The notes beneath the pieces are model-generated. The model saw nothing but the letters and a program-made list of their open reading frames with translations, did not search any database and had not been told where the DNA came from. This document shows, in pieces, positions 31,448 through 59,205 of a stretch of 64,000 bases of DNA; position 1 is the stretch's first letter; each line of letters opens with the position of its first letter. The position numbers were made by a program, and so were the translations under genes. This DNA comes from Candidatus Methanomethylophilaceae archaeon (GTDB taxonomy: Archaea; Thermoplasmatota; Thermoplasmata; Methanomassiliicoccales; Methanomethylophilaceae): positions 448,001-512,000 of the forward strand of contig CALUHR010000013.1 in the NCBI GenBank assembly GCA_944320495.1. The letters are read 5' to 3'.

Positions 31448-32194
31448 ATGACCGACGGCCCACTCACAGACTTCGAGCTGTACTTCACCAAGAACGGACT
31501 GGTGCAGGTGTCGAACGACGTGAGGCGCCGCATCCTCCACGAGCTGGAGACGAAGGACCTGTCCCTCACAGACCTCTCCAAGATCCTCGGCAAGGCGCAG
31601 TCTACCCTTTCGGTACATCTGGACAAGATGGTCGACGAGAGCCTCATCGCCGTACACGACGATCCGGAGGACAGCAGGAGGAAGGTGTACTCCCTCGTGT
31701 CCATCATGCTCGCGTACTCCAAGCCCCCGTCGGACGACGCCATGACCATGGCGATGAAGGTCCTCACGGAGGTCGCGGATGACCCCATCGCGACGCGCAA
31801 CGCCCTGACCAAGTTCCTCTTCCTGGGGTTCGACGGGATGGGTCTTTCGGTGGAGCCCATGGCCACGATCCTGGGGTCCATACACGCTATGGCGCTGGGA
31901 GGGTTCCTCACGGGACCCACCATCGAGGACACGGTCGCCAACGCCAGGGACTACTACAAGAAGATGGGGTTCGGTGACGCCAGTGTGTTCTCCCTGAAAC
32001 CGCTGTCCATCACGATAAAGGACGACCTCTCGTTCTCGGCGGACGCCGCCAAGTCTCTCGGCAACTACGCCATCGGGTTCTTCAGCAAGGTCCTGGAGGA
32101 CGCCACAGGGAAGACCTACTCCGTCACATCGAGCGAGGTCTTCGGTCTCGACGGCAACTACTTCCGCTTCACCATCGAGCCCGTGAGCCAGCGA
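31448..32194 (+). CDS. ArsR-family HTH transcriptional regulator with a V4R-like C-terminal domain
   Basis: RRRILHEL...KAQSTLSVHLDKM...DSRRKVY winged HTH. Ends at CGA 32192-32194 (standard stop at 32857 would run through the whole convergent gene). Confidence 0.82.
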
Positions 32195-32824
32195 TCGCCT
32201 CGACGGTTCGAACGTCAGGAGGGCGCCGTTGCCCAGGGTCTCGCAGGAGACGAGCGTGAGCCTCATGCCTCCGTCGGCCACCCATCCGTCGCCGTCGCAG
32301 GGCGTGGGGGCGTCGCGGCCGCCGATGACGAGGCCTCCGACGAACACGGTGTACCTGTCCACCATGCCTGCTCTGAAGAACGACGATATCGTCTCGCCGC
32401 CGCCCTCCACGAGGACGTTCTCGACCCCCATGTCCGCGAGCTCCTTCATGACCTTCTCCAGGTCGATGCGGTCGGCGCCGGCGCGGATTATCTCCTCGCA
32501 GTCCCACTCGCGGTCGCAGCCCTCCAGGGTGACCATTATTGTCGGTGCCCTCTCGTCCAGGATCTTCGCTTCGTCCGGGGTCCTCCCGTGGGGGTCCAGA
32601 ACGATCCTGATGGGGTTGGTGTCGTAGTCCAGGTCCTTGAGCGTGAGATGCGGGTCGTCAGCGACGACGGTGCCGACGCCCACGAGTATGGCGTCGTATT
32701 TGCGCCTGAGCCCCTTGGCGCGGGCCTTGTCCTCCTCGGAGGAGATCGATACCTGGGTCCTGTCGTCCCCGGCGATCTTGCCGTCGGCGGACATGGCGCA
32801 GTTGACGTGTACGAAAGGTCTCAT
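32195..32824 (-). CDS. arfC: 2,5-diamino-6-ribosylamino-4(3H)-pyrimidinone 5'-phosphate reductase (RibD C-terminal family)
   Basis: AMSADGKIA, DAILVGVGTVVADDPHL and LVEGGGET motifs. Ends at CGA 32197-32195 (standard stop at 31424). Confidence 0.88.
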
Positions 32825-35606: not shown

Positions 35607-37007
35607 ATGGCACAGATTTCGGAAGCGAAAATACCCGAGACCCAGAGGACCGAGGAGGGCAGGCTCTTCGAGAAGGAGTTCGACACCGTCCTCGGCGGGG
35701 AGAAGAGGGACTACCCCTGCTACATCGGAGGGCTCAAGATCGGGTCCGGCAACCTGTTCTACCTGTGCAGCCCGGTCGACGAGTCGATCCGCTACGGCTC
35801 ATTCCAGGAGCCCGAGGCTGGCACCATGAGAGCCGCCGTCGCCGAGGCCGGCAAGAAGGTCTCCGAGTGGTCCCGTGTCCCGGCGGAGAAGCGCGCCTCG
35901 TACTTCGTCCCGTATCTGAACGGGCTGAAGGCCAGGAGGATGCACTACGCCGCGCTCGTCTCCGTGGCCTCCGGCATGGTCCGCGAGGACGCGCTGTTTG
36001 AGGTGGACTCGCTCATCTCCGCGCTGGAGAAGCTCATCGCGGACTCCCCCTCCTTCAAGGGGAGGAAGTCCGGGGTCTGGGCCGTGATCACCCAGCACAA
36101 CTCCCCGCTCGCGTCCCCCGTCGCGTATGCGGTCGGGGCGATGATCGCCGGGAACGCGGTCGTCATGAACCCGTCGAACACGTGCCCCATGCCGATATAC
36201 GACTTCTACTCCACCACGGAGCGCAGCGGTCTCCCAGGAGGGGTCCTGAACCTCGTGGTCGACCGCAACGAGTACGAGTCGACCCAGGAGCTGGCCAACG
36301 ACATGTCGCTCCGCGGCGTCGTGGCCTCCGGATCAGGCGACAGGATGGAGGACATGATGTTCCTCCAGATCGACGACGAGCTCCGCTTCGTCAACAACCT
36401 CAAGGGCATGAGCCCGTGCATCGTCTACCGTCCCGGGGACATGAAGGCGGCTGCCAGGATGATCCTGGAGTCCGCGTTCGCCTACAGCGGCCAGAGGATC
36501 CACTCCTGCTCCAAGGTCATCGTCACCATGGACGAGCAGAAGCAGCTGGTGGACGCCCTCGTGGAGAGGATGAAGGACCTCGTCGTGGGGGACCCCGTCC
36601 TCGACACGACCTTCACCGGCCCCGTCATAAGCATGGAGGCGGCCGAGAGGTTCTCCGAGCTCGCCCTGGAGAACGCAGCGTTCACGATATCCAAGGCCCC
36701 CAGGTGCATGGAGCCCAACGCGGCCAACTACGTGTCCCCGTTCATCGTCTCCGGACTGGACGAGGAGAACGAGCTGGACTTCATGGACTCCGGGCTCCCG
36801 ATCCTGGACGTCAAGGTGGTCCCGGACCTGGAGGGCGCCTTCGAGGAGCTCTCCAACACCGAGTGCGGCATGTCCGCGGGGATCTTCTCGAAGAACGCCG
36901 AGGCCATCGCGAGGCTCAAGAGCGACTGCGATGCGCCGGTGAAATACGTAAACGAGAGCACGAGGCGCCTCAGTCCCGTGGTCGGTCTCGAGCTCGACAG
37001 GTTCTGA
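35607..37007 (+). CDS. aldehyde dehydrogenase-fold protein (RocA/P5C-dehydrogenase-like) with degenerate catalytic residues
   Basis: YPCYIGG, MIAGNAVVMNPS, GGVLNLV and SAFAYSGQRIHSCS motifs. Confidence 0.85.
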   Translation: MAQISEAKIPETQRTEEGRLFEKEFDTVLGGEKRDYPCYIGGLKIGSGNLFYLCSPVDESIRYGSFQEPEAGTMRAAVAEAGKKVSEWSRVPAEKRASYFVPYLNGLKARRMHYAALVSVASGMVREDALFEVDSLISALEKLIADSPSFKGRKSGVWAVITQHNSPLASPVAYAVGAMIAGNAVVMNPSNTCPMPIYDFYSTTERSGLPGGVLNLVVDRNEYESTQELANDMSLRGVVASGSGDRMEDMMFLQIDDELRFVNNLKGMSPCIVYRPGDMKAAARMILESAFAYSGQRIHSCSKVIVTMDEQKQLVDALVERMKDLVVGDPVLDTTFTGPVISMEAAERFSELALENAAFTISKAPRCMEPNAANYVSPFIVSGLDEENELDFMDSGLPILDVKVVPDLEGAFEELSNTECGMSAGIFSKNAEAIARLKSDCDAPVKYVNESTRRLSPVVGLELDRF

Positions 37008-37586
37008 TCGGCCGACGCGGACGTTCCTGGCGCGTCCCCTCAGGGACTTCGCCAGGGCGTCCAACCTCTTCCTGTCGTACCCGGGGGCCGGTCTCGCCGG
37101 CATCCGGAGCAGGAACATCCCGTATCCCTCGACGGAATCCGCCGCCTCGAGGACCGTCTCCTCGGTCGTCCTCTCGTACAGGCGGACGATGGCGTCGAAG
37201 GTCCCTCCGTTCTCCTCGGCGATGCGGATGCTCCTGCGCTGGTCTCCGTCGGCGGCCCCGTCCATCAGGAGGCCGATGCCGGTGGCGTATCCCGCGCCGA
37301 TGAGGTCGTCCAGCTCGTCCGGATGCCTTCCGGACGTCTCGATGATGACGGGCAGCCCCCTGGGGCGGACGGTCTTGATGAGTCTGTGGATTCCGGGGAG
37401 CTCCTCAGGGTCCCCGTCGAGGCGGCGGACCACCATGGCGTCCACGATGTCGGTGTCGCGGGCTGTGACGGCGGCCACCGCATCCGGGTCCTCGCCCGGT
37501 CCGTCGGATCCATCGACTATGAGGACGCTCACCTGTCTGCCGGGCCATGCGACCATGTCGGTCCTGGAGAACGATGCTATGCGCAT
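37008..37586 (-). CDS. NrdG/PflA activase-like protein lacking the CxxxCxxC motif
   Basis: MRIASFSRTDMVAWPG N-terminus and IETSG motif resemble anaerobic RNR activases, but the protein has no cluster Cys. Ends at CGA 37010-37008, abutting the convergent TGA (standard stop at 36333). Confidence 0.6.
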
Positions 37587-47543: not shown

Positions 47544-48364
47544 GAGCGGAGTTCGAGGTGCCGGACATACCGGCGATCAGGTCCGAGGGCCTGACGCCGG
47601 TGGACATGCACTACCACACCAGCTGCTCGGACTCGGACACGGACCCCGTCGCCGCCCTCCGCCTGGCCGAGCGCATGGGCGTGGGGTTCGCGGTCACCGA
47701 CCACAACCTGATCCAGTCGGTGCTGAGGCTGAAGGAGGTACGCTCCTCCGTCCCCGTCGTCCCGGGGATGGAGGTCAGCACCACCGACGGCCCGCACATA
47801 CTGGTCTACTTCCCCACCTCCAGGTCCCTGGAGAGGTTCTGGTACACGCGCATCCGCCCCCGCATCCAGGAGAACCCGTGGCTGGCCCTCAGGGACTGCA
47901 CCACCGAGAGGCTCCTGGACATGTGCGAGATGGAGGACTGCGTCGTCTCCGCCGCCCACCCCTCGGGATACTTCAACACCAACAAGGGCGTCGAGATCTG
48001 CATCCGCAAGGGCATCCTCATGCCGTCGGTGGCAAGGCGTCTCGACGCATACGAGGTGATCTCCGGGGGAATGACCCGCGAGTCCAACGAGAACTCCATA
48101 GCCGCCGCCAAGGAGTACGGGCTGGGGTTCACAGGGGGCACCGACTCCCACGTCCTCAACGGCCTCGGAGGCGTCGTCACCGTGTGCCAGTCGTCCACCG
48201 TGGAGGGGATCCTGGAGGACGTGAGGCACCATCGGGTGGACGTGATCGGACAGGAGAAGAACATCCGCGAGAAGGTCGTCACCGGCTCCGCCTCCGCCAT
48301 GAAGTTCGCCCTCCACGTGCCCTCGACCGTATCGGTGAAGGCTCGCGGGATGGTCCGGAGACGA
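47540..48364 (+). CDS. PHP-domain phosphoesterase
   Basis: DMHYHTSCSD, VTDHN, GMEV, AHP and GGTDSH motifs. Ends at CGA 48362-48364, abutting the convergent TGA (standard stop at 49870). Confidence 0.85.
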
Positions 48365-50170
48365 TCACTGGTCGTCTTCCTGCTCCTGCTCCGCCATCTC
48401 GGCCCTTGTCTGGCGGCGCTTCCTCACGTAAAGGACGAGTATCGCCAGCGCGGCCACCGCTATGATCGCCGCATAGTACCACAGCTCCACCTCGACGGCG
48501 TTGGGGACGATCAGGATTATCAGGAAGTCGATCAGCACGATCAGGAGGTACGTGTTGATGTCCAGGAAGTTCAGGAACCTCTCGTATATGGCGACGGGGT
48601 TCGAGTCGCGCCCCTCCCTGTTGGCGATGCGCTTGGCCCCGCCGATGATGATCTCGTCCAGGAACTTCACGTTGTTGATCATGTAGTACGTGGGGATCGT
48701 CAGGAACAGGAAGTTCATGCCGAGGATCATCAGGACCCATCCGGTCTGATTCCATCCGAAGGACTCCAGCAGCCATTCGCTCAGCGGAGGCGTGAGGAAG
48801 TAGAAGGCGATCTCTATCGCCGCGATGACCAGGATGTTGATGTACGCATGGGTCATGCTGCGGTAGACGGCCTTCTGGGACTTCTTCGAGGACGCGGAGA
48901 GGCGGTCGTAGGTCCTGGACCTGGCGTCGTTGAGCGAGCAGCATGCCGCGTAGATGGGGCGGGGGCACTTGGACACGACCCCGTCCCAGATGCTCCCCGC
49001 ATAGCGCGACACGATCGGGAGGGTTATCATCGAGAGCAGGGCCGCGCCGATGACCGAGGTGTAGAACCCGTCGTCTATGACCCCGTCAGCCAGCGCCTCG
49101 GCGGCGATGATGAACGCGAACTCCCCCATGGCGCAGAGGTTGATCGCCGAAAGGAACCCGTTCCTGCAGGTCTCGTTCCCGATCCAGTACGCCAGGAACC
49201 CGTTGCAGGTCATCAGGACGAAGTAGATGACGAAGAAGATCAGGATGGTGCCGATGTTGTCCACCAGGATGGACGCTGGATAGACCTCCGCACCTATGCT
49301 GATGAAGAACACGGCCATGAACAGGTCCCTCATGGGGCCGATCTTGCTGTTCACGTCCTTGGCCTTCCTGCTGCTGGCCACCATCATGCCCATCAGGAAC
49401 GCTCCGATGGCCATGGACAGGCCGGCGTATGTGGCCAGCAGGGCCATGAGGAACGCCAGTCCGACGGATGCGACCGTGAGGATCTCGTCGGACACGTTGT
49501 CGGAGATCCAGTTGATGATCCTCGGCACGACCCTCAGGCCCACGACGATGCTGATGACCATGAACACGAGGATCTTGACGATCAGGACGATGATCTCGTT
49601 GATGTCCATCCCGCCCATCTCCCCGGCGGAGTAGTTCGCCATCAGCGGCGTGATCATGGAAAGGATGATGACCTGGCCGATGTCCTCCATGATGGCGACG
49701 AGGATGAGCATGTCCACGTGGTCGCGGTCGAGCTTGTTCTGCGTCTTCAGCACGGCGAGCAGCACGGCGGACGAGGATCCGGAGATTATGGCGCCCAGCA
49801 CGAGGGACTGGGTCATGTCGTAGCCGAGGAGCGTCCCGGCCACGAATCCCCCTGTGAGCATGAGGGGTAGCAGGATGACCACCACGAGGATGGCGAAGGA
49901 CCCCTGCTTGCGGATCTTCTTGATGTTGATCTCCAGCCCTATGCAGAACATCAGCAGGACCAGTCCGAAGTCCTTCAGGAAGGAGATGATCTCCTCTTCG
50001 GCGAGGATCGTCCCCTTGTCCTGGAAGAGGAACATGACGTTGACCAGGACGATGCCCGCGATGATGTATCCGATGAGCGGGGGCAGCTTGAACTTGTTGA
50101 AGACGATGGAACAGACCGCGGCGAGCAGCGAGAACAGCGCCAGCGCCGTCAGCATCACCGTCTCTTCCAT
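48365..50170 (-). CDS. cation:proton antiporter (CPA2/KefB-like)
   Basis: PPLIGYIIAG, LLMFCIGLE, SSSAV, MEDIG and GEFAFII motifs. Confidence 0.9.
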   Translation of the reverse strand: MEETVMLTALALFSLLAAVCSIVFNKFKLPPLIGYIIAGIVLVNVMFLFQDKGTILAEEEIISFLKDFGLVLLMFCIGLEINIKKIRKQGSFAILVVVILLPLMLTGGFVAGTLLGYDMTQSLVLGAIISGSSSAVLLAVLKTQNKLDRDHVDMLILVAIMEDIGQVIILSMITPLMANYSAGEMGGMDINEIIVLIVKILVFMVISIVVGLRVVPRIINWISDNVSDEILTVASVGLAFLMALLATYAGLSMAIGAFLMGMMVASSRKAKDVNSKIGPMRDLFMAVFFISIGAEVYPASILVDNIGTILIFFVIYFVLMTCNGFLAYWIGNETCRNGFLSAINLCAMGEFAFIIAAEALADGVIDDGFYTSVIGAALLSMITLPIVSRYAGSIWDGVVSKCPRPIYAACCSLNDARSRTYDRLSASSKKSQKAVYRSMTHAYINILVIAAIEIAFYFLTPPLSEWLLESFGWNQTGWVLMILGMNFLFLTIPTYYMINNVKFLDEIIIGGAKRIANREGRDSNPVAIYERFLNFLDINTYLLIVLIDFLIILIVPNAVEVELWYYAAIIAVAALAILVLYVRKRRQTRAEMAEQEQEDDQ

Positions 50171-54584: not shown

Positions 54585-55700
54585 ATGGAGGACATAGGAA
54601 CAGACATCATGGACCGCGTCCTCGCCGCCCGCGAGGCTTACGATCCCTCATCGTACACCGAGTCGGACGTCCGCAGGGCGATGTGCGCCGAGCCGTCCGT
54701 CGAGGGATTCGCAGCGCTCCTGTCGCCGGCCGCGGAGCCTCTCCTCGAGGAGATCGCCGCACGTGCGAGGGAGGTCACCCGCGCGCACTTCGGGAACTCC
54801 GTCTGCATGTTCACCCCGCTGTACGTCTCCAACTACTGCATCAACGGATGCGTCTACTGCGGGTTCCACAAGGGGAACAGGATCGAGCGTCTCAAGCTCG
54901 GTCTGGACGACGTCGCCCGCGAGCTCGACGCCATCGCCGCCACCGGTCTGGAGGACATCCTCCTGCTCACAGGGGAGACCCACTCCGAGGAGGATGTGAG
55001 GTACGTCTGCGACTGTGTCTCCCTCGCCGCCGAGTGCTTCGCCGAGGTGGGCATCGAGGTCTTCCCGATGAACTCGGGAGACTACGCGAGGGTCCAGGCG
55101 GCAGGCGCCGACTACGTCACGGTGTTCCAGGAGACATATGACACCGGGAGGTACGACGAGCTCCATCCGTTCGGTCCCAAGTCCGTGTTCTCGTACAGGT
55201 TCAACGCCCAGGAGAGGGCGCTCATGGGAGGCATGCGCGGGGTGGCCTTCGGCGCCCTGCTGGGTCTGGCCGATTTCAGGAGGGACGCGTTCGCCTGCGG
55301 GCTCCACGCGATGGAGATACAGCGCAGATATCCCGCCGCGGAGATCTCCATGTCGCTCCCGAGGCTGAGGCCGGCCGCTCACATGGACCAGTCCTCCGGC
55401 GTGAGCGAGGCCCAGCTCCTCCAGGTCTCCATGGCGTACCGCCTGTTCCTGCCATATGCGGGGCAGACCATCTCCACCAGGGAGCGCCCCGGGTTCAGGG
55501 ACGGGATCGTCGGGATATCGGCCACCAAGATCTCGGCCGGGGTCAGCGTCGGCATCGGGGAGCACAGCGGGACGGGCCACGGCGAGGGCCAGTTCGTGAT
55601 ATCGGACCCGAGGGGCGTGGACGACGTGGTCTCGGCGCTGAGGTCCAACGGCCTCCAGCCCGTCATGGCCGACTATGTCCGCACGGGGCCCAGGGAATGA
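54585..55700 (+). CDS. thiH: 2-iminoacetate synthase (radical SAM)
   Basis: PLYVSNYCINGCVYCGF, FQETY, ISTRE and SAGVSVGIG motifs. Confidence 0.93.
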   Translation: MEDIGTDIMDRVLAAREAYDPSSYTESDVRRAMCAEPSVEGFAALLSPAAEPLLEEIAARAREVTRAHFGNSVCMFTPLYVSNYCINGCVYCGFHKGNRIERLKLGLDDVARELDAIAATGLEDILLLTGETHSEEDVRYVCDCVSLAAECFAEVGIEVFPMNSGDYARVQAAGADYVTVFQETYDTGRYDELHPFGPKSVFSYRFNAQERALMGGMRGVAFGALLGLADFRRDAFACGLHAMEIQRRYPAAEISMSLPRLRPAAHMDQSSGVSEAQLLQVSMAYRLFLPYAGQTISTRERPGFRDGIVGISATKISAGVSVGIGEHSGTGHGEGQFVISDPRGVDDVVSALRSNGLQPVMADYVRTGPRE

Positions 55701-56278
55701 TCGCCGTCACGTCCCGCTCGCTGTGCGGGGAGCCGTTCCTGACGAGGGTCGCCAGGCTGGCCGAGGCCCGTCCGGAGATGATCATCCTGAGGGAGAAGGA
55801 CCTCACGGAGGGCGAGTACCTGGCACTGGCGGCTGGATGCAAGCGCATCTGCGACCCTCTAGGCGTGCCTCTGGTCGTCAACCACTTCGTGTGGGTGGCC
55901 GGCATGCTGGGGATCAGAAGGATCCACCTGCCGATGCCGGACCTCCGCGAGGAGGACGTGTCGGGGTTCGACCTCGTGGGCGCGTCCGTGCACTCCGTGG
56001 AGGAGGCCAGGGAGGCCGTGTCGCTCGGGGCGGATTATCTCATAGCGGGGCACGTTTTCGGAACCGCCTGCAAGCCTACCGAGCCGAGGGGGCTCGGATT
56101 TCTTCGCGACGTCTGCTCGGCCGTGGACGTCCCCGTGTACGCCATCGGGGGCGTGGGCCCCGACAACTACCGGAGCGTCCTCGAGGCCGGTGCGCACGGC
56201 GCCGCGGTGATGTCGTCGGCCATGACCTGCGACGATCCCGAGGCTCTCGTTGACGCGATGCCCTCTCGCAAAGGTCGA
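55697..56278 (+). CDS. thiE: thiamine-phosphate synthase/TenI family protein
   Basis: ILREKDL, GASVHS, GHVFGTACK and YAIGG motifs. Ends at CGA 56276-56278 (standard stop at 56296). Confidence 0.8.
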
Positions 56279-56302
56279 TATCCCCCGAGCCGTTGACCCC
56301 GC

Positions 56303-56938
56303 ATGGACGAGGCGACCTTCGACCGCGCCAAGGCATTCATCCGCGACCTCTTCGAGGGCGACAGCGGCGGTCACGACTACTGGCATTCGATTCGCGTCCA
56401 CGACCTCGCCGTCTCCATCTGCGGCAGGGAGGGAGGCGACATGGACGTCGTCCGTCTGGCGGCGCTCCTGCACGATGCGGACGACCGCAAGCTCTTCGGA
56501 CAGGGGAGCCGCAACGCCAGGGGATTCATGGACTCCGAGGGCATACCCTCAGACGTCCAGGACGAGGTCGTGGAGATCATATCGAAGATATCGTTCAAGG
56601 GAGCCGACACCGAGGTGCCCGCATCGCTGGAGGGGAGGATAGTCCAGGACGCCGACAGGCTGGACGCCATAGGTGCCGTCGGCATAGCCAGGGCCTTCGC
56701 CTACGGCGGGAGCAGGGGCCGTCCGATGCACGATCCGGAGGTCCCGCCGTGCGAGGGCATGGGCGAGGCCGCCTACTTCGCCAATCGCGGGACGACGGTC
56801 AACCACTTCCACGAGAAGCTGCTCCTGCTGAAGGACATGATGAACACCCCGACCGCCCGCGCCATGGCGGAGTCCCGCCACCGCTACATGGAGGGCTTCC
56901 TGGAGGAGTTCCTGGACGAGTGGGAGGGCCGCAGGCGA
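56303..56938 (+). CDS. HD-domain protein
   Basis: GHDYWH, LLHDADD, VQDADRLDAIGAVGIAR and HFHEKLL motifs. Ends at CGA 56936-56938 (standard stop at 57235). Confidence 0.9.
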
Positions 56939-57598
56939 TCGCAGGAGCTCGAACCGGTTCTTGGAGAACTTCAGGACGCCGTCGGCCTGCATCCTTCCGA
57001 GCTCGGCCGACAGGGCGCTCCTGTCCACGCCCAGGTGGTCGGCCATCTGCTGCCTGTTCAGCGGTATGGAGAACTCGTTGCTCCCCGCGATCCTGGCCTG
57101 GTCGGACAGATAGGCGCACACCTTCTCGCGGATGCTCCGCTTCGACATCTGCCCCAGCCTCCTGTCGCGCTCCACGGTGCTGCGGGCGAGGGCCTGGACC
57201 AGATTTCTGACGACTCTCGAATGGAACTGGCATGATGACGGGCAGGTCGTCGTCACCCTGGAGATCTCGAAGAACATGATCTCGGACCGATCGCTGGTGA
57301 CGAAGCTCGTGTCCGCCCGCTCGCCCATCGAGCACGCGTACTCTGCGAAGATCACATCGCCCGGTCCGTGAGAGGAGACCAGGGTCCTGTTCCCCCACCA
57401 ATCCTGTTTTATGACGTCGACGCGGCCGTCGAGGACGACACCCAGGCAGTCGACGGGGTCCCCGCTGCGAAGCACGAACTCCCCCTTGGGATACTTCTCC
57501 CTGCGGGCGTTCAGGCATTCGCACATCGCTGTAATCTCATCATCAGACGTCCCCAGGAAGATCCCGGTGTTCCTGAGGATGGGGATTGGGCTTCTCAT
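56939..57598 (-). CDS. Crp/Fnr family transcriptional regulator (HcpR-like)
   Basis: cNMP-binding beta-roll and HTH (IPLNRQQMADHLGVDRSALSAELGRM). Ends at CGA 56941-56939 (standard stop at 56549). Confidence 0.9.
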
Positions 57599-57675: not shown

Positions 57676-59205
57676 ATGTCGGAAGAGATGTTCTGCTATC
57701 AGTGCGAGCAGACCGCCGGAGGCCGCGCATGCGTGGGCAGGTCAGGGGTCTGCGGCAAGACCTCCGAGGTGGCCATGCTCCAGGACGAGCTCACGGGCGC
57801 CCTCGTGGGCCTCGCCGATACCGTGGAAACCCCCACGCCCGGAATCGACTCCCTCGTCAGGAGGGCGCTCTTCGCCACCCTGACCAACGTGGACTTTGAT
57901 GCCGACAGCATCAGGGCTCTGACGGACGGGGTCAGGAAGGCGTCCGGAGGGGAGGGCGAGATACAGATGTCGTCGGTCTGGTGCGCCCAGGAGGACGTTC
58001 GCTCGCTGAAGTCCCTGATCCTGTTCGGGGTCCGTGGCATGGCGGCCTACGCGTACCACGCCGAGGTCCTGGGCGAGACCGACCCCGAGGTCGATTCGAT
58101 GATGTACGAGGCCCTCCGCGCCGTGGGGTCGGACATGGGCGCCGACGGTCTCCTTGACGTCGCCCTGAGGCTGGGGAAGGCGAATCTCGCCTGCATGGCG
58201 ATGCTGGACTGTGCGAACACCGCCAGATTCGGCATGCCCTCCCCTGCCACCGTATCCCGCGACGTGGCCGCCGGACCTGCGATCATCGTCACCGGGCACG
58301 ACCTGGAGGACCTCCGTTTGATCCTCGAGCAGACCGAGGGCAAGGGGATCAACGTCTACACCCACGGGGAGATGCTCCCGGCCTTCGGATATCCCGAGCT
58401 CAGGAAGTACACACATCTGAAGGGCAACTTCGGAACAGCCTGGCAGAACCAGAGGGACGAGTTCGACGGGGTCCCCGCGGCTATCGTGTACACGACAAAC
58501 TGCCTCATGCCGCCCAAGGATTCGTACAGGGACAGGGTGTTCACCACCGGACCCGTGGCCTTCCCAGGAACGGTCCACATCGGGGACGGTAAGGACTTCG
58601 CGCCCGTCATCGAGAAGGCCCTGGAGTTGGGAGGCTTCGCCGAGCCCACGAGCACCGGAGCGACGCTCACTACCGGGTTCGGACACGGGTTCGTGCTCTC
58701 CGTCGCCGACAAGGTCGTCGAGGCCGTCAAGTCGGGCCAGATCAACCACTTCTTCCTCGTGGGCGGATGCGACGGCGCCAAGCCCGGACGCGGATACTTC
58801 AGGGAGTTCGTCGAGAAGACCCCGGAGGATTCGGTCGTCCTCACGCTGGCCTGTGGGAAGTACAGGTTCAACGACCTGGACCTGGGGACGGTCGCCGGAC
58901 TCCCCCGTCTCATGGACATGGGCCAGTGCAACGATGCCTACGGAGCGGTGCAGGTGGCCGTGGCGCTGGCCGACGCGTTCGGATGCGGGGTCAACGACCT
59001 GCCCCTGTCGATGGTCATCTCGTGGTACGAGCAGAAGGCGGTGTGCATCCTCCTGACGCTGCTCCATCTGGGGATCAGGGGCATATACCTCGGACCATCG
59101 CTCCCGGCGTTCGTGTCCCCTGCCGTGCTCGACATCCTGGTACGGGAGTTCGACGTCCACGCCATCTCGGACGTCGATTCCGACATGGCCGCGATGCTCC
59201 GCTGA
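57676..59205 (+). CDS. hcp: hydroxylamine reductase (hybrid cluster protein)
   Basis: MFCYQCEQT...C...GVCGK, TGHDLEDL, YTHGEMLP, GGCDG, MGQCND and SWYEQKAV motifs. Confidence 0.96.
   Translation: MSEEMFCYQCEQTAGGRACVGRSGVCGKTSEVAMLQDELTGALVGLADTVETPTPGIDSLVRRALFATLTNVDFDADSIRALTDGVRKASGGEGEIQMSSVWCAQEDVRSLKSLILFGVRGMAAYAYHAEVLGETDPEVDSMMYEALRAVGSDMGADGLLDVALRLGKANLACMAMLDCANTARFGMPSPATVSRDVAAGPAIIVTGHDLEDLRLILEQTEGKGINVYTHGEMLPAFGYPELRKYTHLKGNFGTAWQNQRDEFDGVPAAIVYTTNCLMPPKDSYRDRVFTTGPVAFPGTVHIGDGKDFAPVIEKALELGGFAEPTSTGATLTTGFGHGFVLSVADKVVEAVKSGQINHFFLVGGCDGAKPGRGYFREFVEKTPEDSVVLTLACGKYRFNDLDLGTVAGLPRLMDMGQCNDAYGAVQVAVALADAFGCGVNDLPLSMVISWYEQKAVCILLTLLHLGIRGIYLGPSLPAFVSPAVLDILVREFDVHAISDVDSDMAAMLR

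Follow-up and report, generated by a model that had tools for sequence, protein, structure and literature searches.

Which codon ends a gene when two converging reading frames run through one another for most of their length? This question is raised by a locus in a 64,000-nucleotide stretch of DNA from Candidatus Methanomethylophilaceae archaeon (assembly GCA_944320495.1, contig CALUHR010000013.1, forward-strand positions 448,001 to 512,000; hereafter the window). Here a gene for an HD-domain hydrolase on the plus strand converges with a gene for a Crp/Fnr-family regulator on the minus strand, and the palindrome CGATCG at window 56936-56941 supplies each of them with an in-frame CGA, in the standard code an arginine codon. 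An original prediction, made from the letters of the window, held that both genes end at these CGA codons, which share one hexamer on opposite strands. We find that they almost certainly do, and that CGA is quite probably a translation termination signal used beside TGA, TAA and TAG in this archaeon, perhaps a leaky one, that would most likely be read by the release factor aRF1, whose own gene may carry a CGA that acts as a feedback sensor.

The CGATCG junction between the HD and Crp/Fnr genes

There is an open reading frame (ORF) on the plus strand that starts at the ATG at 56303 and reaches an in-frame CGA (56936-56938) directly after ...EWEGRR, and another on the minus strand that starts at the ATG at 57598 and reaches an in-frame CGA (56941-56939, TCG on the plus strand) directly after ...NRFELL. 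The surrounding sequence is ...GAG TGG GAG GGC CGC AGG CGA TCG CAG GAG CTC..., and both it and the ORFs agree with the arrangement that had been predicted. Under translation table 11, the HD frame extends to 57235 (310 amino acids, aa) and the Crp frame to 56549 (349 aa), which gives a mutual antisense overlap of 687 nucleotides (nt) and involves most of each gene. When CGA is read as a stop, the HD gene occupies 56303-56935 (plus strand, 211 codons) and the Crp/Fnr gene occupies 56942-57598 (minus strand, 219 codons), and none of their 430 codons is CGA. Arginine in the HD gene is encoded by CGC (10 codons), AGG (7) and CGT (2).

In both frames, coding character ends at the hexamer. We trained a codon log-odds score on the genome that contains the window (G000 among the genomes compared). 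Between the 50 codons before the hexamer and the 50 codons after it, this score drops from +1.00 to -0.44 for the HD frame and from +0.97 to -0.46 for the Crp frame. The GC content of third codon positions drops from 1.00 (HD) and 0.96 (Crp) to 0.62. The additional sequence demanded by the standard code consists of a 99-codon HD tail antisense to the Crp gene (56939-57235, plus strand; the CGA and 98 codons from 56939) and a 130-codon Crp tail antisense to the HD gene (56549-56938, minus strand; the CGA and 129 codons from 56938 downward). Both tails have negative scores, a Pfam search with the 98 and 129 aa that follow the CGAs matched no families, and we regard both as spurious.

The two shorter products are complete members of their families. 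The 211-aa HD product is a single domain that is matched by Pfam HD (E 1.8e-9) and, over residues 7-209, by the structure 3djb in the Protein Data Bank (PDB; E 4e-58). It carries the metal motif H...HD...D, for which the translation has ...YWHSIRVHDLAV... and ...LLHDADD..., and it resembles YpgQ and YedJ. Its solved relatives, which include Bacillus subtilis 5dqv (211 aa) and Escherichia coli YedJ (3gw7), are 209-239 aa long. The 219-aa Crp product is matched by cNMP_binding (PF00027) at residues 34-112 and by HTH_Crp_2 (PF13545) at residues 158-218, and homologous Crp/Fnr chains in the PDB are 216-259 aa long. These lengths, and the positions at which homologues stop, bear out the claim that the CGAs sit at the usual ends of both families.

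The HD gene is found in 22 of the 24 sampled species of the genus, and no homologue was found in 16 genomes from six other families of the order. We compared 80 HD homologues from archaea and from many phyla of bacteria: most have a standard stop (TGA, TAA or TAG) precisely at this codon, and nearly all of the rest stop within a few codons. Within the genus, the end codon is TGA in G022, G006, G020 and G013 and CGA in G000, G018, G014, G002 and G009, while G017, G005 and G024 end one codon further on at TGA. Among the 80 homologues, eight genus members lack a standard stop at the HD end, and all eight have CGA at offset 0. The next standard stop in these eight genes lies 2, 4, 13, 18, 92, 99, 99 and more than 499 codons away. 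CGA and TGA are thus equivalent at this position. In a tree of HD sequences, those that bear CGA occur in at least six separate places within the genus, sometimes beside near-identical sequences that bear TGA, as would be expected of two codons that can replace each other as stops.

A similar picture is obtained for the Crp/Fnr gene. At this codon or one codon later, its orthologues have TGA in G006 and G002 and CGA in G000, G018, G009, G004, G014 and G016. The G013 frame has a CGA three codons further on, and the genes in three genomes of another family end at TGA or TAA, 4-5 residues later. The complete CGATCG hexamer is retained in five species (G000, G018, G009, G004 and G016), wherein the flanking codons vary (AGG, CTG or CTC before it and CAG, CTT or TTT after it). 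In G016 (C18:2723-3960), the HD and Crp orthologues hold several TAG, TAA and TGA stops and are pseudogenes, and the junction is there nonetheless.

The homologue alignments end at these codons and none continues beyond them. The geometry at 56936 is not due to chance, as had been claimed from its recurrence, and the sign of the coding score reverses in both frames. Few single sites demonstrate CGA termination as cleanly as this locus, where one hexamer, conserved in five species, settles two overlaps that exclude each other.

CGA at gene ends across the genome

The source genome is a 1.77-Mb draft in 14 contigs with 62% GC and a completeness of 90.6%. Within ORFs of clear coding signature, each in-frame codon was classed according to whether the sequence before and after it shows coding signal. 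There are only 11 CGA codons with coding signal on both sides and 82 at which coding gives way to noncoding sequence. The corresponding counts are 417 and 43 for CGG, 834 and 36 for CGT, and 854 and 28 for AGA. CGA is therefore depleted inside genes, and it is nearly unused there throughout the genus, including in species with few CGA ends. When CGA is read as a stop, the 1561 well-scoring genes of the genome end at TGA (1080), CGA (360, about 23%), TAG (69) and TAA (52), and those within the window end at TGA (36), CGA (22), TAG (3) and TAA (2).

CGA also coincides with the ends of homologues where relatives have standard stops. When 19 CGA-ended genes were compared with orthologues in 80-kb samples from three relatives, the orthologue had TGA in 11 cases, CGA in 6, TAA in 1 and CGA one codon earlier in 1, and in no case did it have a sense codon. 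Together with its near absence from conserved sense positions, this gives CGA the distribution of a stop codon. The share of ends at CGA differs among the samples (22/81 in G000, 7/65 in G013, 5/100 in G004, 2/62 in G008 and 2/66 in G015). GC content was considered as a driver of this share and rejected, since the GC fraction of G004 (0.617) nearly equals that of G000 (0.618), yet their counts are 5/100 and 22/81.

The base that follows the codon matters as well. The proportion of CGA among CGA and TGA ends is 0.39 when the +4 base is U, 0.23 for C, 0.18 for G and 0.11 for A. As for the in-frame CGAs that have strong coding signal on both sides, which occur in the genes for aRF1 and a flavodoxin-like protein and in two further genes, the next base is C or G and never U.

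There is a striking class of gene pairs at which the CGA codons accumulate. Among convergent pairs in G000, the distance between stops peaks sharply at zero, where 27 pairs lie, and every other distance up to 60 nt has 0-8. These 27 abutting junctions consist of CGATCG (13), CGATCA (9), TGATCG (4) and TGATCA (1). The junction at 56936 had been described as a second independent example, which is correct but understates the case. CGA provides 39 of the 54 stops at such junctions (72%) versus 25% of all CGA and TGA ends; for ends followed by TC outside the abutting junctions its share is 31%, as obtained by subtraction from these counts. A simpler detector, which agrees with the main count when applied to G000, finds mostly TGATCA (8 of 11) at abutting junctions in the samples from G008, G015, G004 and G013. 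The abutting YGATCR layout is thus shared by the genus, and in the G000 lineage nearly every such junction has been converted to CGA.

Stop-start overlaps in G000 use the two codons about equally (78 CGATG and 80 TGATG). Since read-through from the junctions would go furthest into antisense sequence, their use of CGA argues for CGA followed by U as an efficient stop. Two candidate explanations for the excess of CGA at abutting junctions were rejected. A systematic base-calling artefact, linked to DNA modification, that turns TGATCA into CGATCG is contradicted by the continued frequency of TGATCA (614 occurrences versus 692 of CGATCG) and by the presence of the same CGAs in many independent assemblies. 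Avoidance of TGATCA due to restriction would require a deficit, and by our own estimate from base composition only about 220 occurrences are expected where 614 are observed.

Four abutting junctions lie in the window, of which that at 56936 is the last. The first CGATCG junction is at 32192-32197 (C13:480192), between ORFs at 31448-32194 (plus strand) and 32195-32824 (minus strand) when CGA is read as a stop. The junction at 37005-37010 (C13:485005) is TGATCG, with TGA on the plus strand and CGA on the minus strand, and that at 48362-48367 (C13:496362) is CGATCA, with CGA on the plus strand and TGA on the minus strand.

Several individual genes elsewhere in the genome deserve mention. The flavodoxin-like gene (G000:C8:55276-55840, plus strand) has its in-frame CGA at codon 136, followed by CCC, in the middle of the domain (between ...DFTGKTI and PFCTNEGSG...). 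It is a candidate for either a sense CGA or a recently truncated gene. Another in-frame CGA, at codon 191 of G000:C13:357212-358313 (minus strand) and followed by GCC, separates a GmhA-like part (...VERELFGS) from a GmhB-like part (AVFIDRDDT...). The short flanks that were read before and after this CGA, a few codons each, contain no start codon, and the arrangement represents either a fusion protein in which CGA is a sense codon or two separate genes whose restart is unusual. Finally, a Pelota-like gene (G000:C1:21949-22224, plus strand) lies within an 858-codon open frame of the standard code, which suggests that it also ends at a non-standard stop.

Candidate readers of CGA and rival explanations

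The genome has one aRF1 gene and one Pelota-like gene. The aRF1 gene lies outside the window (G000:C2:85936-87165, minus strand; locus L131:1087-2316, minus strand) and ends at TGA. It contains a single in-frame CGA, located 20 codons after the NIKS motif at an arginine that is conserved across the order. This CGA is the sole one inside the coding region, and is present at the same codon, in 21 of the 22 genus genes that are readable there, although the synonymous codons that flank it vary; the remaining gene, that of G005, has AAG. The base that follows is C in every case. In four other families of the order, the seven aRF1 genes compared have CGC, CGT, CGG or AGA at this arginine and 2-4 CGAs elsewhere. 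A release-factor gene with a conserved in-frame copy of the codon has the sequence feature expected of autoregulation of the prfB type. The conservation of this CGA leaves it an even question whether the codon forms an autoregulatory feedback loop.

Other features of aRF1 may relate to recognition of CGA. The residues next to NIKS read QASNIKSKTTM in the genus versus QSSNIKSQGTR in other families. In the loop equivalent to the GTS loop of eRF1, RGRSTE is found only in G000 and G018, which have the highest CGA-stop share among the sampled genomes, and RGRGTE is found in 28 other aRF1 sequences (loci L132-L161). We consider it rather likely that aRF1 reads CGA directly.

The tRNA expected to decode CGA is also unusual. 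In tRNA-Arg(UCG), the 31:39 pair is mismatched in all 12 species compared (C.A, A.A or U.C), and the four pairs above it covary. The tRNA of G008 instead has C33 and a C.C mismatch at 27:43. Absence of tRNA-Arg(UCG) from the G008 subclade was considered and rejected: the tRNA escaped both a blastn search that used the G000 form as query and a search for two DNA patterns, but the full tRNA inventory of G008 revealed the different form. In five outgroup families, the tRNA has a perfect five-pair stem and the loop CUUCGGA or CUUCGAA, while the loop UUUCGGC is found only in G000 and G018 (comparison loci L105-L117, L224 and L233-L243). These features fit a weak decoder that may have been retained for the few sense CGAs.

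These data suggest the following model. Each CGA at the HD/Crp junction would be a former TGA whose T, on its own coding strand, was replaced by C, such that CGATCG would be the CGA counterpart of the TGATCA junction used by relatives. A single aRF1 would recognise CGA in competition with a retained but detuned tRNA-Arg(UCG), which would create a context-dependent and slightly leaky stop wherein U at +4 favours termination. The conserved CGA-C of the aRF1 gene would be read as arginine and would serve as a feedback sensor, like the in-frame UGA of bacterial prfB. Perhaps, when aRF1 is plentiful, it terminates its own synthesis at this codon, and when aRF1 is scarce, the tRNA reads through. On balance, we lean slightly towards a broader form of this model in which the whole gut-methanogen genus uses a four-stop code with CGA as a context-dependent terminator that is read by aRF1 and balanced by the weakened tRNA and the aRF1 sensor. 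The genus would then be in an ambiguous intermediate state, and the conversion of TGA to CGA would have gone furthest in the lineage of G000 and G018, which alone has the Gly-to-Ser change in aRF1.

Several points weigh against CGA as a stop. Loss or disabling of the cognate tRNA is not found: tRNA-Arg(UCG) is present with a good score (55.7 bits; G000:C13:413317-413390, plus strand, 34.6 kb before the window), so CGA is in principle readable as arginine, and the tRNA is kept in G000, in 12 of the genus genomes searched and, in its other form, in G008. aRF1 retains its NIKS and YxCxxxF motifs without change, and thus no known specificity determinant explains how C would be recognised at the first position. 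There are a few in-frame CGAs within apparently intact genes, such as those for aRF1 and the flavodoxin-like protein. In addition, the gene set rests on a codon-usage score rather than on curated annotation, all of the genomes compared are metagenome bins or uncharacterised assemblies, and the support for termination at CGA is drawn from genome sequence. Since the tRNA is kept but altered, the code is better termed ambiguous or leaky than cleanly reassigned.

Other explanations must account for the same gene ends. One is that C-to-U editing of mRNA turns CGA into UGA and leaves the genetic code unchanged. This would suit the alternation of CGA and TGA at the same positions, as if they were equivalent after editing, and plant organelles do create stop codons from CGA in this manner. 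However, some 360 sites that share no upstream context would all have to be edited while the CGA of the aRF1 gene escapes, and the retention of a tRNA-Arg(UCG) with a conserved stem defect would be left unaccounted for. The genome does have two genes for deaminases of the CDA fold, but both are of ordinary size and belong to families that are also present in Haloferax and Methanosarcina controls; they neither support nor exclude editing. We know of no mRNA editing of this stop-creating kind in archaea, and we consider this explanation unlikely. A second possibility is that CGA is effectively unassigned or is decoded very slowly, and that stalled ribosomes are resolved by rescue through Pelota and ABCE1 or by drop-off rather than by true termination. 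The near absence of CGA inside genes across the genus, even where CGA ends are few, the alteration of the cognate tRNA in every species examined, and the presence of a Pelota-like gene are all compatible with stalling. Yet about a quarter of the genes, many of them with housekeeping functions, would then depend on a rescue path that lacks peptidyl-tRNA hydrolysis. CGA is moreover favoured at abutting convergent stops and is as common as TGA in stop-start overlaps, which are the places where read-through or stalling would be most awkward, and the sensor-like CGA resides in the gene for a release factor and not in that for a rescue factor. Stalling is therefore very unlikely.

There remain two explanations that deny CGA any special role. 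If CGA is an ordinary arginine codon, then both proteins carry long C-terminal extensions that are antisense to each other. The frames are indeed open under table 11, tRNA-Arg(UCG) exists, and public gene callers give the 310-aa form: the collections of NCBI, ENA and Logan contain the read-through HD ORF as a cluster of 40 members and do not contain the 211-aa protein. This reading is highly implausible, as the tails score negatively for coding and match no family, their lengths in the relatives that bear CGA vary between 2 codons and more than 499, and orthologues have TGA at the very same codon and in no case another arginine codon. The chance that the CGAs stem from errors in sequencing or assembly, or mark decaying genes, is negligible. 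A draft genome in 14 contigs with 90.6% completeness might well contain errors, but the same CGA is seen in independent assemblies from different projects and hosts, individual members of the read-through cluster are found on up to 21 contigs in the same collections, and both genes are otherwise intact and conserved. We therefore retain termination at CGA as the preferred interpretation.

Origin of the locus and comparison with known systems

The HD and Crp/Fnr genes were originally placed in a bacterial-looking block, and it was proposed that acquired genes have also adopted the CGA stop. The former notion finds partial support, in the HD gene. The HD genes of the Methanomethylophilaceae fall in a clade that otherwise consists of Clostridia and other Bacillota (support 100/96), and a transfer from gut Firmicutes is plausible, although the tree is unrooted and is open to either direction. 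The latter notion needs to be revised because the transfer predates the genus and CGA came later, from TGA. The HD gene is common to several genera of the family, and the other genera end it at TAA, TAG or TGA, which indicates that the CGA end is younger than the acquisition. It arose inside the genus when the T of TGA became C, and the HD tree calls for at least six such events. Acquired genes have thus adopted CGA only in the sense that any resident gene of the lineage is exposed to drift from TGA to CGA.

Some public records of metagenome-assembled genomes ('cleanbin' isolates) are titled Prevotella hominis, Firmicutes bacterium CAG:194, Lachnospiraceae, Bacteroidaceae and Bifidobacteriaceae, and carry genes of the genus (L026, L027, L030, L033 and L037). 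Their organism labels look wrong, as if archaeal bins had been mislabelled as bacteria. Entries L026, L027 and L029 share contig ranges with loci of genus g1, L005 and L004 among these, and the genome collection assigns those loci to the archaeal genus.

The genes on either side provide some context. Just upstream of the HD gene there is a ThiE-like gene (55697-56278, plus strand) with a CGA at 56276-56278, six codons ahead of a standard stop at 56296. This tail is too short to tell the true end from sequence alone. On the other side, the hybrid-cluster protein gene hcp (57676-59205, plus strand; Pfam Prismane, E 1e-150, profile positions 1-512 of 513) ends at TGA. It is divergent from the Crp/Fnr gene, with 77 bp between them, and this gene arrangement makes the regulator probably of the HcpR type.

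If our interpretation is true, this would be the first change from sense to stop in a free-living organism, and it would have been caught in an ambiguous intermediate state. Code evolution by the 'ambiguous intermediate' route would gain a natural example in a cellular genome where an arginine codon terminates about a quarter of the genes even as its tRNA is retained. It also makes directly testable how a factor of the eRF1 type could accept C at the first stop position. There are practical consequences as well. Standard gene callers would mis-annotate these genomes, and current annotations are already affected, as is evident from the 310-aa form of the HD protein held in public sets. Such antisense 'extensions' would contaminate protein databases and the pangenomes of gut archaea from humans and animals. 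Back-to-back junctions would be the simplest diagnostic of a CGA stop that can be applied to sequence alone, since a single hexamer has to account for two overlaps that would otherwise be impossible.

Our literature searches found no description of CGA as a stop for the Methanomassiliicoccales, and we found none published for any free-living organism. To our knowledge, changes from sense to stop are known only from organelles. They include AGA and AGG in vertebrate mitochondria, UCA in Scenedesmus and UUA in the mitochondria of Thraustochytrium (NCBI tables 2, 22 and 23). As in these organelles, a codon that encodes an amino acid elsewhere marks gene ends and vanishes inside genes. However, the organelle genomes are tiny and have a dozen or so genes, whereas about 360 genes in a 1.8-Mb cellular genome are concerned here. 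The codon is also a different one, the old stops are still used, and the cognate tRNA is kept.

The putative sensor in the aRF1 gene has a parallel in the autoregulation of prfB, which encodes RF2 and uses an in-frame UGA and a +1 frameshift. In both cases, a release-factor gene carries an in-frame codon that its own product reads, or in aRF1 would read, as a stop, and the conservation of the CGA suggests a similar negative feedback. Escape from the stop occurs by frameshifting in prfB, whereas in aRF1 it would occur by plain decoding of CGA by tRNA-Arg(UCG).

Arginine codons have changed their meaning in other prokaryotes. Reassignments found with Codetta include CGA and CGG to Trp in the Absconditabacterales, CGG to Gln or Trp, and AGG to Met (PMC8629427). 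These cases resemble the present one in that rare arginine codons are involved, but they are changes from sense to sense in low-GC bacteria (PMC8629427). Methods of this type cannot infer stops, and this may be why a case of CGA termination went unnoticed.

The code change of Blastocrithidia nonstop is reported to involve a tRNA-Trp with a 4-bp anticodon stem and a mutant eRF1 (PMC13092985). By analogy, that case and ours would each combine a change in the meaning of a stop with a tRNA that lacks the bottom pair of its anticodon stem and an altered class-I factor of the eRF1/aRF1 family. The direction in Blastocrithidia is from stop to sense, and here it would be from sense to stop.

The closest precedent concerns two assemblies of Njordarchaeales, for which CGA as a stop is suggested in one sentence beside a change of CGG to Trp (bioRxiv 10.64898/2026.04.02.715157). 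As in our archaeon, CGA is missing from conserved domains and is a possible stop. In those assemblies, tRNA(UCG) was not found and there is no evidence from gene ends, whereas the archaeon studied here belongs to an unrelated lineage, the Thermoplasmatota, and offers gene ends, orthologues and a retained tRNA.

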